Position numbers and translations under genes: made by a program. A DNA stretch of 4,902 bases from a virus (taxonomy: Duplodnaviria; Heunggongvirae; Uroviricota; Caudoviricetes), in the IMG/VR virus record IMGVR_UViG_2703718771_000001; one strand, 5' to 3'. The notes below the pieces were generated by a model that was not told the origin of the DNA, did no database searches, and saw only the letters and a list, made by a program, of their open reading frames with translations. Position 1 is the first letter of the stretch; each line of letters opens with the position of its first letter. This document shows positions 1 to 4,902 of the stretch, piece by piece.

Positions 1-223
1 CTCGCTGGCCTGCCGCAGTTCTTCAACTTCCCGGCGCAGCTTTTCGTTCTCAATTTCAGCATCCCTTTCGGCATACCATTTTATGACGGCGGCAGAGTCA
101 TAAAGCACCTCATTACCCTTGCCACCGCCTCGCAGAACGGGCATTCCCTGTTCCTGCCAGTTCTGAATGGTACGGATACTCGCACCGAAAATGTCAGCCA
201 GCTGCTTTTTGTTGACTTCCATT
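1..223 (-). CDS. nu1: Terminase small subunit Nu1, N-terminal part (CDS runs off the 5' edge of the window)
   Basis: Minus-strand ATG at 223..221 opens a frame with no stop to position 1. My translation reads MEVNKKQLADIFGASIRTIQNWQEQGMPVLRGGGKGNEVLYDSAAVIKWYAERDAEIENEKLRREVEELRQASE, which matches lambda gpNu1 from memory (winged-HTH DNA-binding N-terminus). It lies about 189 nt from the cohesive end, as in lambda. Not in the ORF track because it has no in-window stop. Confidence 0.9.
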
Positions 224-246
224 GTTCATTCCACGGACAAAAACAG

Positions 247-411
247 AGAAAGGAAACGACAGAGGCCAAAAAGCCCGTTTTCAGCACCTGTCGTTTCCTT
301 TCTTTTCAGGGGGTGTTTTAAATAAAAACATTAGGTTACGGCGAAGAAGAACGGAAACGCCTTAAACCGGAAAATTTTCATAAATAGCGAAAACCCGCAA
401 GGTCGCCGCCC
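247..411 (-). other. Lambda-type cos site: cosN 12-nt cohesive end (400..411) plus cosB with three terminase-binding R elements
   Basis: Plus 400..411 'aggtcgccgccc' is the reverse complement of GGGCGGCGACCT, the lambda cohesive end. Flanks match recalled lambda left and right end sequence with a few substitutions. The heptamer GGAAACG occurs at 252..258 and 352..358 and its complement CGTTTCC at 292..298, the R1 / R2 (inverted) / R3 arrangement of lambda cosB. An A/T-rich stretch at about 316..337 lies where the lambda IHF site I1 sits. Confidence 0.85.
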
Positions 412-669
412 CGTAACCTGTCGGATCGCCGGAAAGGACCCGCGAAAATGATAATGGTTATCAGTTGCAGCAAATCCAGTTTCTTCCACCATCGCACCGG
501 ACCAGCGACCATGAGGGGACAACGCCGCGCTCCGTTTACGCGGTAAACCCCGGTGTGTATCGTTTTTGATTATCCCCGCACACTCGCGCAGAGGAGTCTC
601 CCTGTCGGGCTGCGGTCTCTGTTAATGCAGGAATACGGCGACAATACCGCGCATGGATAATAAGGTCGC

Positions 670-894
670 TCAACACACTGGCTGTAATGCAGCGGATGCC
701 ATGCGGCATTTAGCGGCATTCATCGTACACTCCACGGTTAGTTCTTCATTCGTGGCATTCACCTGAAAGGTCCGGGAGTGTAATTGCGTACATTTACCAC
801 TGAACGAACCTTCAACAAGAACACGACCACGCTGCAAAATACGGAACGGAATTGTTCCCTGAAAAGGTTCTACGGTTATCCGTAATTTCTTCAT
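670..894 (-). CDS. Hypothetical 74-aa protein between Rz/Rz1 and cos; function unknown
   Basis: ATG at 894..892 preceded by GGAGG (plus 'cctcc' 899..903) at 4-nt spacing. The start overlaps the stop of the Rz reading frame as ATGA (plus 891..894 'tcat'). No signal peptide or transmembrane segment is obvious; four Cys residues. I do not recognise the family. Confidence 0.5.
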   Translation of the reverse strand: MKKLRITVEPFQGTIPFRILQRGRVLVEGSFSGKCTQLHSRTFQVNATNEELTVECTMNAAKCRMASAALQPVC

Positions 895-1385
895 GTATCC
901 TCCGGATAATAAAAAGCCTGCTTAGTACACTGAGTGCGGATATAGTCCTGTGCCCCTTCCACCTGCTTCTGCATTGTCATCAGCCGTTCTCTGAGGATGA
1001 AATAATCCCGTTCAGCGGTGTCTGCCAGTCGGGGGCCGGTTGCATTATCCACGCCGGAGGTGCCGGTGGCTTCACGCACGGTACCGGGGCAGGTGGCGTT
1101 GATCCGCAGGCGCTTACGACCAGCGGCAACATCAGCGCGCAGAGTTTAATTTTCAGCTCTCGCATCGGCTAATTCCCTCGAGTATCTGGCATCAAGTGCA
1201 GCAACATCACGCTGGCGCTGCTGCATATCAGTAATGGTGGCGTTCGCCTTCTCCAGTTCACTGGCCTTGTTATCGCGCTGCTCTTTGTAGGCGATTGCGT
1301 TATCACGGTAATGATTAACAGCCCATGACAGGCAGACGATGATGCAGATAACCAGAGCGGAGATAATCGCGGTTAACCGACTCAT
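891..1385 (-). pseudogene. Rz: Rz i-spanin (inner-membrane spanin subunit) interrupted by an in-frame TAA at 1146..1148
   Basis: ATG at 1385..1383 gives [29 protein letters not shown]... (N-terminal TM helix then coiled coil), resembling lambda Rz from memory. After 79 codons the frame hits TAA (plus 'tta' 1146..1148). The same frame then continues without further stops as [73 protein letters not shown]... to the stop at 891..893, and this part resembles the lambda Rz C-terminal domain. The two ORF-track entries 1146..1514 and 891..1079 are in one frame (1514-1079=435). Confidence 0.7.
980..1165 (-). CDS. Rz1: Rz1 o-spanin (outer-membrane lipoprotein spanin subunit)
   Basis: 61 aa, [20 protein letters not shown]...: lipoprotein signal peptide with lipobox ending in Cys20, then a Pro-rich mature region ([28 protein letters not shown]) as in lambda Rz1. 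Encoded in the +1 frame relative to Rz, as expected for spanins. Confidence 0.8.
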
Positions 1386-1473: not shown

Positions 1474-1971
1474 TCATTGTTGCCCCCACAAACAGACTTC
1501 ACGCTCAATCTCACGACGAGTCATCAGACCTTTCCATTGCTTACCGCCAGCGTATGTCCAGCGACGTAGCTGATCACATGCGCCTTTGATATCGCCCTGG
1601 TTGATTTTGCGCAGAAGCGTCGATGTTCTGAAATTGCCAGCACCCACGTTGTAAACGAATGAGTAAAGAGCGCCGCGCGTTGTTTCCGGTATATCGACTT
1701 TGATGTACGGGTTAATTTGTCTGGCTACCGTGGCAAGGTCTTTATTCAGGAGGGCTTTGCATTCTGCTTCGGTATACGTTTTACCGGGAATGATGTCTTT
1801 TCCTGTATGCCCGTGACATACAGTCCATACGCCAACGATATCTTTGTATGGTATGTAGCTGACACCTTCCAGACCATCGTTACCACCTGGACCAGTGATT
1901 AACACTGATGCTATAGCAATAGCCCCGCCACCAATAGCAGCTGCAACAGCTTTTCGTAATGACGGAGGCAT
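1474..1971 (-). CDS. R: SAR endolysin (phage-21 R21-like lysozyme with N-terminal signal-anchor-release domain)
   Basis: 165 aa. The N-terminus [30 protein letters not shown] is a Gly/Ala-rich weakly hydrophobic SAR segment, followed by a T4-lysozyme-like domain. Strong resemblance to R21 from memory. ATG at 1971..1969 overlaps the holin stop (TAATG). Confidence 0.9.
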
Positions 1972-2186
1972 TATTCACCTCTCGCAGCCTTTCTTCTGTC
2001 TTCTCTGATTTTGAAGTACAGATTTGTCAGATAAGTCAAAAAGCCCAGAACTAGACTTCCCAGCACACCAATTGCAGCCCACTGTGACGGACTGACCTGA
2101 TCCAACCACTGTAAAAACCAGTATCCCGCACTACCAGCGGATGTTCCGTAGGCAATGCCAGTAGAGATTTTGTCCATTGATTTCAT
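1971..2186 (-). CDS. S: Class II holin / pinholin (phage-21 S21-like) with dual-start motif
   Basis: 71 aa, [71 protein letters not shown]: two TM segments and a charged C-terminus. Two in-frame ATGs (2186 and 2177) give the M-K-S-M dual start of the antiholin/holin pair (S21-71 / S21-68). GGAGG sits 8 nt upstream of the first ATG. Confidence 0.9.
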
Positions 2187-2304: not shown

Positions 2305-2380
2305 TGGTGCTGGTTAACGGACTTGAACCGCTACCCATTCGCTTACAAGGCGACTGCTCTACCATTGGAGCTAAACCAGC
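2305..2380 (-). tRNA. tRNA-like gene, predicted anticodon TGT (Thr), 76 nt including encoded CCA
   Basis: Minus-strand sequence GCTGGTTTAGCTCCAATGGTAGAGCAGTCGCCTTGTAAGCGAATGGGTAGCGGTTCAAGTCCGTTAACCAGCACCA. By hand fold: perfect 7-bp acceptor stem, 4-bp D stem (GCTC/GAGC) with GG in the loop, anticodon loop CTTGTAA, T arm with TTCAAGT loop. One G-A mismatch at the top of the anticodon stem and one G-T wobble in the T stem. Not run through tRNAscan. Confidence 0.55.
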
Positions 2381-2385
2381 ATATT

Positions 2386-2460
2386 TGGCGGGACAGCGTG
2401 GACTCGAACCACGATAAGAAGGTTAACAGCCTTCCGTAATGACCTTTATACGACTGACCC
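2386..2460 (-). tRNA. tRNA-like gene, predicted anticodon GTT (Asn), 75 nt including encoded CCA; possibly degenerate
   Basis: Minus-strand sequence GGGTCAGTCGTATAAAGGTCATTACGGAAGGCTGTTAACCTTCTTATCGTGGTTCGAGTCCACGCTGTCCCGCCA. T arm CGTGG/TTCGAGT/CCACG, anticodon stem GAAGG/CCTTC with loop CTGTTAA. One T-T mismatch in the acceptor stem (4:68), one in the D stem, and a 4-nt variable loop. Immediately preceded on the minus strand by a T-rich run. Confidence 0.5.
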
Positions 2461-2551: not shown

Positions 2552-3040
2552 CTATGCTACATGTTTAATTTTCTCTACACGTTTCCGACTTTTAAACGCA
2601 CTATCCAGAACCGGGTAAATCATAAACAACGAGGCATTAAGGATTTCGTCAACTTCCCGTCGACAGGTTGCGAGCGATGGTTTTTGAATGCGCCCGCCGC
2701 CACGGCATAACATCTTGCGAGGTCTTGCGACGCGATGATAGTAAGATGCAATGGCGTGCTTGGAAGAGCCATGAGCGTAGTAGCTGAGGAGGATTCCAAA
2801 GGCTTTCTTGTCAATGTACATGACGGAATCGACGACCTGAGAAATCAACATTCCATCATCATCATTACACATTGGCCTTGTCATAACTCTTCCCGGCTCT
2901 ACGCTCTCCATGAACTTCGCTATTACGCTGCTCATGCGCTTTTCCAGACGACCTGAATAAACCCATGCGCCCCACAGTTCAAGCCAGCCATTCAGCCACT
3001 CATGCTGTTCTTTGGTGAGGTTTAGTTCTCTTATGCCCAC
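2552..3040 (-). CDS. Q: Late-gene antiterminator Q (short QuuD / phage-21-type family)
   Basis: 162 aa starting at GTG (3040..3038), with AGAAGG 3 nt upstream. The segment [11 protein letters not shown]...[19 protein letters not shown] resembles the WGAW...RPxC-DDD-M-I core of E. coli QuuD (DLP12) as I recall it. It sits between the phosphatase gene and the lysis cassette, the position of Q; it does not resemble lambda Q (207 aa). Confidence 0.7.
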
Positions 3041-3702
3041 GCGCCTTCTCCCTGTACCTGAATCAATGTGAGATTTCCGCAGAACACTGCCCCAGTATCG
3101 ATATACATCTGGTTGGCAAATTTGAGTGGTTTCACTGCTGGCGTATGACCAAAGATAAACGTGTCCGCGCCTTTAATTTCTTTAACGATCCCGTCTTGTG
3201 AGTTGCTGATTCGTTCGCGGTTCCAGATTACCTGCTGATGATCAACTGGCTTTCCAAATTCGTATTCGTCACAAGGATAATCGGCGTGGCAGATGACATA
3301 TTTTTTACCTTTGCTCACCAGTTCGATGATTAACGGAAGTTCTTCTGCTTTATGGGCAAGAGCTTTAGCCAGAATTTCTTTGTCGTAATCGAGATTAAAG
3401 AACCAGCCACCGCCATTAAGCAGCCAGTGATTAACGTTTCCACGCTCTGATAAGCCATCAATCATCATTTGCTCATGGTTTCCACGTACAGCTCTGAACC
3501 AGGGGAATGTGATTAATTCCAGGCATTCAACGTTCTCTGCACCACGATCAACCAAATCGCCCACCGAGATAAGCAGGTCTTTTTTGTTGTCGAATCCAAT
3601 CGTATCCAGTTTGTTCATCAGGTTCGTGTAGCATCCGTGCAGATCGCCAACTACCCAAATATTTCGGTATTTGCTGCCATCAATTCTTTCGTAGATATTC
3701 AT
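3031..3702 (-). CDS. ninI: Ser/Thr protein phosphatase (lambda PPase, calcineurin-like metallophosphatase)
   Basis: 223 aa with the metallophosphatase motifs GDLHG, GDLVDRG and GNHE. Closely matches lambda phosphatase from memory ([54 protein letters not shown]...). ATG at 3702..3700 overlaps the ninG stop as ATGA; GTGAGG lies upstream. Confidence 0.93.
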
Positions 3703-4310
3703 GCGGCCTCACTTCTGCTGTTTCGCAGTTTTTTAAGTTTCTGTTGATACTCCGCCTTGATGGTCCTGCACTCTTCGACAGTCCAGCGATGGCGGTTATG
3801 GTTTGATTCGATTTCGTCTACTGCTTCCTGCCCGATGCGGTTAATCAGTTCGACGCGATACGGAACGAGATTTCCGCTTTTGTGCTGGTTGCACACCACG
3901 CATTGCTTGTGAATATTGCGTTCATCAAATCGGAGTTGAGGTGCCGCAGCAGTTGTCCGGTAATGTCCGGCATCCCACTGAGCAGACGTGAGCGTTCCGC
4001 ACGAGATACATGGTAAGTCGCAGTCTCTTTCTCTGATGAAGGCGTTTACGGCTTGTTGGGCTTGTTTAATCCAGTAACTGCGGGGCTTTAAGGCGAGTTT
4101 TCGAATCTTCAGTTTATCTTTCTGTTTCTGCTCCTCTCGTCGTCGTTTCTTCTCTGCTGCTTTTTCCGCTTTTTCGCGTTCTTTACTTCGTCGTTCGAGT
4201 GCTATCTTGGTTCCACACTCTGGAGAGCACCACCACTGATTAGCGAATGCAGGGTGAAACCATTCCCGACATTCATCGTTTTTACATCGTCTTCGCGCTG
4301 GTTTAGCCAT
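3699..4310 (-). CDS. ninG: NinG / Rap-like recombination endonuclease
   Basis: 203 aa. N-terminal Cys cluster ([24 protein letters not shown]), a Lys/Glu-rich central stretch and a C-terminal Cys/His-rich nuclease-like region (CISCG...HYRT...CVVCNQHK). Matches lambda NinG (Rap) from memory in length and sequence. Confidence 0.88.
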
Positions 4311-4479
4311 CGTCTTCTTCCTCGTACATTGAGCTATTCGGATCGCTCATCAGTTCTGCGCAGCAATCGGAGCACACGTGAACTTCCAGCACATGCAGCT
4401 TCTTACCGCAGTTAGCGCACGTTAAAGCCCGCTCGACGCTTTCTTTCTGGTATTGAAGAGATTGGGATGGACTAAGCAT
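4303..4479 (-). CDS. ninF: NinF-like small zinc-ribbon protein
   Basis: From ATG 4479: [58 protein letters not shown] (58 aa), matching lambda NinF from memory, with CxxC...CxxCC. The ORF-track start at 4536 is a TTG extension. An alternative ATG exists at 4491. Confidence 0.8.
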
Positions 4480-4879
4480 GGCTTTCACCATTAAAAAGTC
4501 GCTTGTAAGCATCAATGTCTCGTTTTGCTTCACCAAGCTTTCGTCTTAATTCCATGTTTTCTGATTCAAGCTTTTCCATGTCTTGCTGGTATCTATCGCG
4601 GTGTTCTTTCCATGCTTTTTGATACGCCTTCATGTATGTCATATTGGCCTTTCTCTTTGCCTGACGAACTGCGTGGTGGTTTTTCACAAACCAGTCAGGG
4701 TCGTTAAATGCTGCTCTGGCGCATGTATACCAATAATTTGTTGCCTCCCTGTTTAGCCAATAAATACTGATAAATGGCAACCGGATAGACACCATTTTTC
4801 GTTGAGACTCTTTCTCGCCAAACATGTGCCCTTTTTTGATGCTAAGGCCAAATCCAGGTTGAATTAAAAGCATTATCAT
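4472..4879 (-). CDS. Hypothetical nin-region protein (135 aa, or 133 aa from ATG 4873) with a predicted C-terminal coiled coil
   Basis: Long ORF immediately upstream of ninF and overlapping it by 8 nt, in the position of lambda ninD/ninE but with no resemblance to lambda NinE that I can recall. The C-terminus (QQDMEKLESENMELRRKLGEAKRDIDAYKRL) is heptad-like; the N-terminal half is Trp/Tyr-rich. Best ribosome-binding site (GAGAGG at 8-nt spacing) favours the ATG at 4873. Confidence 0.5.
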   Translation of the reverse strand: MIMLLIQPGFGLSIKKGHMFGEKESQRKMVSIRLPFISIYWLNREATNYWYTCARAAFNDPDWFVKNHHAVRQAKRKANMTYMKAYQKAWKEHRDRYQQDMEKLESENMELRRKLGEAKRDIDAYKRLFNGESHA

Positions 4880-4902
4880 GTCCTCTCACATTGAAAATTC
4901 AG

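Follow-up and report, generated by a model that had tools for sequence, protein, structure and literature searches.

A common lambdoid nin-region protein with a predicted beta-sheet head, basic helix and leucine zipper: a candidate dimeric accessory factor of the delayed-early operon

Among the nin products of phage lambda, NinB/Orf is a recombination mediator, NinG/Rap a junction endonuclease and NinH a Fis-like DNA binder. In phage P22 the genes run in the order ninE - ninX - ninF, and the slot held there by ninX is the one taken in other phages by a gene (presumably missing from phage lambda) whose product belongs to the protein family phrog_1511. This family (VT1-Sakai H0039, HK630 gp55, PA28 gp41 and PY54 ORF53 being among its members) is annotated in PHROG as 'unknown function', has neither a Pfam entry nor a solved structure, and a literature search found no study of H0039 or of the phrog_1511 protein. 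Its bearing on the basic-leucine-zipper (bZIP) proteins is of some interest here, as the discussion in PMC12255303 has bZIPs generally regarded as eukaryotic, with few bacterial analogues having been proposed.

The DNA analysed (hereafter the window: a stretch of 4,902 nt from a Caudoviricetes virus, IMG/VR record IMGVR_UViG_2703718771_000001) carries on its minus strand the terminal part of an early-right operon of lambdoid type together with the lysis cassette. In the direction of transcription (all genes given here lie on the minus strand) the phrog_1511 gene (4472..4873) is followed by ninF (4303..4479; 58 aa, zinc-ribbon CxxC...CxxCC, Pfam NinF E 3.7e-13), by ninG/rap as the next gene but one (3699..4310), by genes for a calcineurin-type Ser/Thr phosphatase (3031..3702) and antiterminator Q (2552..3040), by tRNA-Asn(GTT) and tRNA-Thr(TGT) between Q and the holin gene (2305..2460), and by those for a class II holin (1971..2186), a lysozyme (1474..1971) and Rz/Rz1 (about 891-1514). 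An 8-nt start/stop overlap also joins ninF to ninG (ATGGCTAA, 4303..4310), and ninG overlaps the phosphatase gene by 4 nt (3699..3702) with no ninH between them, unlike HK630 and OkiPb01713; Escherichia sp. E1V33 (L014) shares this ninH-less order, and the tRNA-Thr/tRNA-Asn pair is annotated also in OkiPb01713 and Salmonella phage S107. Within the lysis cassette the Rz frame (about 891..1382) is broken by a single in-frame TAA (1146..1148), beyond which the same frame runs on to a normal Rz C-terminus, and which may represent a nonsense mutation in a prophage spanin gene; Rz1 (980..1165) is intact, as is the homologous 'lysis protein' of OkiPb01713 (153 aa). Positions 1..890 of the window, downstream of Rz/Rz1, contain only short unassigned ORFs (e.g. 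a 74-aa one at 670..894, minus strand). The window as a whole occurs in no complete E. coli genome, the best match covering 76% of it at 98.2%.

The gene had been described as an ORF of 135 aa (4472-4879) with two candidate start codons (ATG 4879 or 4873); the ORF itself is present in the ORF list, while the length has to be revised to 133 aa, as the second ATG (4873) is the true start (CDS 4472..4873, with the TAG stop at 4474..4472 included). This assignment is based on the spacing of the ribosome-binding site, on the starts of homologues, which every database annotation places at this ATG, and on the origin of the first ATG in a ninE stop. A Shine-Dalgarno GAGGA, read from the sequence at 4881..4885 (minus strand), lies 7 nt before ATG 4873 and just 1 nt from the in-frame ATG further upstream (4877..4879); the homologues of HK630, PA28, SE1, S107 and OkiPb01713 have a CDS annotated at 402 nt that starts with M-L-L-I, and all homologues aligned have an N-terminus of the form M-L/I-L/I-I; in NinE-type relatives the bases at the place of the 'first ATG' are a codon-final A followed by the TGA stop of ninE. 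An alignment of five flanks showed that GAGGA is kept in both types of upstream flank and that the mosaic junction between the two types falls ~17-20 nt before the start codon, with a megablast breakpoint at query base 14 for this upstream junction. In the window the 29 nt before the start codon, and with them the upstream flank at 4886..4902 (minus strand), are of the PA28/Stx-phage type, in which Ant/Roi lies upstream of the gene, and not of the NinE type.

The product aligns from end to end with the phrog_1511 HMM (E 1.6e-86; positions 1-133 of the 133 in the profile being covered by residues 3-135 of the longer ORF), and is 100% identical to H0039, a hypothetical protein of the Stx1 phage VT1-Sakai. 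No other strong family match was recovered for the 133-aa protein: neither Pfam nor NCBIfam gave one at threshold (the weaker ones being coiled-coil noise), and PADLOC yielded LmuB as its best match (E 0.0096, 12.4 bits, coiled coil only), so that the protein is rightly called unrecognised, and a confident match to a characterised nin family was not obtained from Pfam, NCBIfam, PADLOC or PHROG. As the sub-threshold LmuB match is all that PADLOC gives, an identity with a known defence or anti-defence protein was rejected. An Rz-like spanin was likewise discarded, since the matches to phrog_1327 and phrog_89 are weak (E 0.019 and 0.00096, respectively) and confined to the coiled coil, the N-terminus is modelled as charged beta strands, and the gene belongs to the nin region and not to the lysis cassette, where the real Rz/Rz1 are found.

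The gene was found in 58 phage records, every one of which annotates it as 'hypothetical', the carriers being lambdoid, Stx1 and Stx2 phages of E. coli, P22-like Salmonella phages and Yersinia phage PY54; it is also carried by Klebsiella prophages and by 385 of the 5426 complete E. coli genomes (about 7%). The 90% cluster to which the protein belongs numbers 966 entries, named 'hypothetical' throughout save for a few automatic 'bZIP' labels, and a word-index search returned 81 clusters, of which the named ones are all from Enterobacteriaceae. When 1.84 billion representatives were searched exhaustively with an HMM, 58 proteins were recovered at E <= 0.001, ~40 of them distant full-length relatives (20-30% identity, 123-147 aa); a word-index search seeded with the profile gave only 9 matches, and two distant members used as tblastn queries on the phage collection gave none. 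All of the 48 relatives that were aligned match phrog_1511, and most of the distant ones match in addition phrog_8749, a distant sister family. The sequence is therefore not new, as it has been catalogued many times, always as hypothetical; what is new here is the correct start, the relation to the NinX slot, the size of the wider family and a confident fold prediction, together with the parallel-zipper and basic-helix features and the test of the automatic bZIP label.

The gene is real and under strong purifying selection. In comparison with the copies of Salmonella phages SE1 and S107, dN/dS is 0.11-0.13 at a dS of about 0.85, and the frame is kept in Flyfo Tbat2_3 (69% identity) and Yersinia PY54 (47%), where synonymous sites are saturated, which disposes of the earlier concern that the frame might not be conserved. 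Several short plus-strand ORFs overlap the gene in the ORF list and could be taken to point to a chance ORF, or to a frame mis-called over another feature. We assign this explanation a negligible probability: dN/dS is far below 1 despite saturated synonymous change, relatives among the 1.8 billion representatives share length and motifs, and the AlphaFold model is confident (a chance ORF being rejected on these grounds), while a search across the gene region found no Rfam family and no promoter-like or terminator-like site over which a frame could have been mis-called.

At its 3' end the gene shares with ninF the octamer ATGCTTAG (4472..4479, minus strand), in which the ATG of ninF (4479..4477) and the TAG of the phrog_1511 gene (4474..4472) can be read directly, as had been reported; the 8-nt overlap implies that ninF is probably translationally coupled to the gene that precedes it. 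A synteny comparison across lambdoid prophages, which the preliminary description had proposed, was carried out and revealed that in close relatives (E. coli, Salmonella and Flyfo Tbat2_3) ninF always comes next with the 8-nt overlap (and with a conserved start MLSP in SE1 and Flyfo), while the upstream neighbour varies: HK630, OkiPb01713 and Escherichia sp. E1V33 have ninE there, PA28-type Stx phages have ant/roi, Flyfo Tbat2_3 has a Dam methylase gene, and Salmonella phages have ninC or ninB, separated from the gene by a stretch that carries no annotation. Further from this clade, PY54 has an unrelated ORF after ORF53, between the Pluralibacter copy and ninF there are genes for an acidic protein of 80 aa and for a cytosine methylase, the copies of L016 and Biostraticola are flanked by a NinE-like gene and ninG, and the neighbours of the more distant members are assorted small genes. 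In every relative's locus examined, the gene is situated between the replication genes and Q/lysis, within a temperate-phage early operon.

The joint movement of the gene and ninF between differing flanks, their constant 8-nt overlap in all close relatives and the acidic end of NinF (EEEDDG) might be explained by a Nin complex of small size, formed by the basic phrog_1511 protein with the acidic-tailed, zinc-ribbon NinF (and perhaps NinE). We consider such a partnership improbable, because beyond the close relatives the two genes no longer go together (an adjacent NinF is missing in PY54, Pluralibacter, L016 and Biostraticola as well as in the distant members), and with this link lost at greater distance there is no obligate partner, a role for which NinF was accordingly rejected. 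Furthermore, NinF is found in many phages that lack the gene (220 records match a query spanning the gene and ninF, as against 58 that encode the phrog_1511 protein), P22 has NinX beside ninF instead, and the shared octamer is a recombination junction that ninX uses as well. Two side observations concern the outlying loci. The protein that follows the gene in the Pluralibacter MAG (L015, 4378..4620) is strongly acidic over its 80 aa and, together with the NinF tail, could point to a recurrence of small acidic products encoded after the basic one. The L016 scaffold (NZ_SZPQ01000041.1, GC 0.487), on which a 56%-identical homologue has NinB, NinE-like, NinG and Q genes nearby, is labelled Martelella alba; Martelella is an alphaproteobacterium, and the presence of an enterobacterial-style nin region on a scaffold so labelled makes contamination or mis-binning possible.

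The gene had been assigned to the ninD/ninE slot, which has to be corrected: the slot is that between ninE and ninF, i.e. the one of P22 ninX. An identity with NinE or NinD was rejected, as no nin-family Pfam match was obtained and a separate 58-aa NinE is encoded directly upstream in HK630, OkiPb01713 and E1V33, in agreement with the first impression that the protein does not resemble NinE. P22 NinX is alike in its slot, in its ATGCTTAG overlap with ninF, in its similar size (112 aa) and in its likewise unassigned function, but differs in sequence, since BLASTP returned no alignment, hhalign gave a probability of 0.5%, and NinX falls in phrog_444 and not in phrog_1511; homology was rejected on this basis, and NinX is a positional analogue of the phrog_1511 protein. 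Given that P22 ninX ends on the same octamer, with the remainder of the gene unrelated, the octamer doubles as a mosaic recombination junction (the downstream one of the phrog_1511 gene), and the gene is one of at least two non-homologous cassettes that are swapped at gene-boundary junctions, as expected from lambdoid mosaicism. The variable neighbours and the exchangeability with unrelated NinX uphold its initial designation as an accessory gene of a mosaic nin region, and the exchange of cassettes in P22 implies that it is dispensable for basic lytic growth.

The product is a 16-kDa protein with a computed pI of 9.79, and its N-terminal half, noted at the outset as rich in Trp and Tyr, is indeed rich in aromatic residues (4 W, 7 Y and 6 F in the whole protein). 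AlphaFold2 monomer models were obtained with 21 close sequences (pLDDT 74.8) and with 48 sequences including distant relatives (pLDDT 89.9). In the 48-sequence model the head domain (residues 1-58; 4700..4873, minus strand) comprises beta strands at residues 2-6, 11-16, 26-31 and 35-40 and a helix at 42-56; it is followed by a short helix (59-65), a break at 65/66 and one long helix (67-129), in which residues 71-120 have a pLDDT of 96-98. The boundary between the head and the long helix is marked by the most conserved motif of the family, D-P-D-W-F-V-K-N (residues 58-65; 4679..4702, minus strand), in which D58 is present in 90% of the sequences, W61 in 47 of the 48 and N65 in 45 of the 48 (distant relatives included); together with M1, W61 and N65 are the only near-invariant residues of the wide family. 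As N65 is positioned at the helix break, and a Pro two residues further on is frequent in distant members, it may act as a helix N-cap.

The segment that follows (basic helix, residues 66-94; 4592..4678, minus strand; defined by charge calculation and column frequencies) is strongly basic, with a pI of 10.45 over residues 59-94 and with K or R in 81, 79, 71 and 69% of the 48 relatives at the columns of R70, K73, R74 and K75, respectively. It bears in addition an Ala/aromatic stripe (V69, A72, A76 and positions 80, 84 and 88), which suggests that one portion of this helix is packed on the head or on a partner chain. The C-terminal part (residues 95-128; 4490..4591, minus strand) is a predicted leucine zipper of roughly six heptads as judged from the heptad table and its periodicity, with Y95, L102, L109, A116 and Y123 at d and M99, N106, L113, I120 and F127 at a in the window protein. 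The heptad-like C-terminus proposed earlier is thus a property of the whole family: family-wide columns have a hydrophobic periodicity peak at 3.5 residues, positions a and d have hydrophobic occupancies of 0.49 and 0.70 (~residues 88-127) and the other positions 0.07-0.21, and 42 of the 48 members keep the seam in one phase with respect to N65, the other 6 having a 4-residue deletion and keeping the seam through an a/d swap. Under the established rules for coiled coils, an Asn buried at 'a' together with salt bridges between g and e' points to a zipper of two parallel strands. Within the family, a-positions 106 and 113 are most often Asn, the g-positions 105 and 112 are mostly Glu, and the e-positions 110 and 117 are mostly Arg or Lys, and these pairings indicate, with fair confidence, that the protein would form a soluble parallel homodimer. 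Foldseek searches of both models against the PDB returned nothing significant (best E 0.84-0.96), the scattered matches being to dsRBD, COMM, PURA, XRCC4 and roadblock/longin folds at probabilities of at most 0.38, and PDB sequence searches (with the single protein, two profiles and the C-terminal half) returned generic coiled-coil and bZIP chains at E >= 0.0006 that leave the head uncovered.

A basic helix that continues into a zipper raises the question of whether the protein is a bona fide bZIP transcription factor, as the automatic names of some near-identical entries have it ('BZIP domain-containing protein' for UniRef A0A2T3V8M5_ECOLX, 'bZIP transcription factor' for NCBI CTW47535.1). 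In a bZIP the signature Asn stands 18 residues before the first heptad Leu, and N77 and Y95 are 18 residues apart; an ungapped alignment to bZIP_1 accordingly places N77 at the invariant Asn and Y95, L102, L109, A116 and Y123 at the heptad Leu positions. The scores of near-identical variants, on the other hand, are at best 13.6 bits for bZIP_1 (cutoff 27.6) and 10.2-11.9 for bZIP_2 (cutoff 22.3), and the window protein itself gave no bZIP_1 or bZIP_2 row even at E <= 10. At the right phase the signature N-x2-AA-x2-[SC]-R reads N77-MT-YM-KA-Y84-Q85, the residue at 77 is N, K, T, M or S among close relatives and T, K or E family-wide, the conserved N65 lies 30 residues before Y95 and hence in the wrong phase for the bZIP Asn, and the protein has a beta-sheet domain at its N-terminus that is conserved in phrog_1511. 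A canonical bZIP was therefore rejected (Pfam PF00170 and PF07716 below the gathering threshold, basic-region signature not conserved), and we regard the bona fide transcription factor as very unlikely; with a Pfam score of about half the gathering threshold and the signature not conserved, the automatic names look like over-annotation. In the PDB, C/EBP, GCN4 and Fos chains were matched weakly (E 0.2-5), as often happens through coiled-coil bias; the recurrence of such matches, with the sub-threshold Pfam scores and the automatic names, also makes the layout of basic helix plus zipper recognisable, in a predicted design that is bZIP-like.

Taken together, these observations are best accounted for by a dimeric accessory factor of the rightward delayed-early (nin) operon that would bind nucleic acid or a nucleoprotein complex, a reading to which, as a whole, we give a probability of roughly 0.4. 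The gene itself is a conserved, non-essential cassette carried between ninE (or ant/roi) and ninF, and its product is predicted to be a soluble basic protein with a beta-sheet/helix head, a DPxW...N junction, an Arg/Lys helix and a C-terminal zipper; the zipper would pair two chains in a parallel homodimer, whose paired basic helices and heads could, during lytic growth, grip nucleic acid or a nucleoprotein complex in a manner that resembles, in outline, the two-pronged hold of basic-zipper proteins. The binding step in particular (of DNA, RNA or nucleoprotein, by paired basic helices and heads during lytic development) is put forward tentatively, on the strength of the conserved Arg/Lys cluster, the basic charge and the neighbourhood of genes for DNA transactions. 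The basic cluster may be turned towards the head or towards a partner protein instead of DNA; moreover, the segment after N65 is weakly charged or neutral in several distant members (e.g. P0091, P0111, P0121 and P0128), so that nucleic-acid binding, if real, may not be universal. A more specific version, in which a non-canonical basic-helix/zipper DNA clamp (a parallel zipper opening into two Arg/Lys helices, each with a beta-sheet head at its end) arose in phages within phrog_1511/8749, independently of eukaryotic bZIPs, and serves lambdoid phages, those with Shiga toxin included, as a delayed-early regulator or as a recombination/replication cofactor, appears to us rather unlikely.

About equally likely as nucleic-acid binding, and proposed just as tentatively, is a protein-targeting factor acting in host takeover or counter-defence, whose zipper would only dimerise and whose head and basic neck would bind a protein of the host or an anti-phage system so as to block or divert it. 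It is consistent with a mosaic region rich in counter-defence-type genes (Lar-like, Dam and cytosine methyltransferases, Ant/Roi, DinI, HicB), with varying neighbours and no obligate partner, with a cassette that is interchangeable with unrelated NinX, and with the lack of an enzymatic motif in the phrog_1511 protein; PADLOC and known anti-defence families were unmatched, though, a conserved cluster of Arg and Lys would sooner be expected in a protein that binds nucleic acid, and the protein is basic, unlike an acidic DNA mimic (an identity that its pI excluded).

The gene is a common one, present among others in Stx1- and Stx2-converting phages, in which the same operon leads into Q and the Stx toxin genes, and a role for its combination of head, basic helix and zipper would fill a blank in the best-studied phage gene region. 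If bZIP-like DNA binding is true, the protein would offer a prokaryotic-virus example of a design mostly looked on as eukaryotic; should it be just one more dispensable accessory, the practical value is limited to a better annotation and to dropping the unsupported 'bZIP transcription factor' label. We see the phrog_1511 protein as an ordinary conserved hypothetical phage accessory, for which the chance of proving to be a bZIP-like DNA binder is modest.

In comparison with known systems, H0039, HK630 gp55, PA28 gp41 and PY54 ORF53 share full-length homology and a common operon position with the window protein and make up the gene's own family. The lambda proteins NinB/Orf, NinG/Rap and NinH resemble it in operon and expression class and in being small and mostly basic, but have no homology to it, and their functions are not transferable. 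Eukaryotic bZIPs such as C/EBP and GCN4 resemble the arrangement predicted here, in which a basic helix continues, as a single helix in the model, into a putative zipper of the parallel-dimer type with a buried Asn at 'a', and differ in that the phrog_1511 protein adds a beta-sheet head and has its conserved Asn (N65) out of phase, where it appears as a cap.
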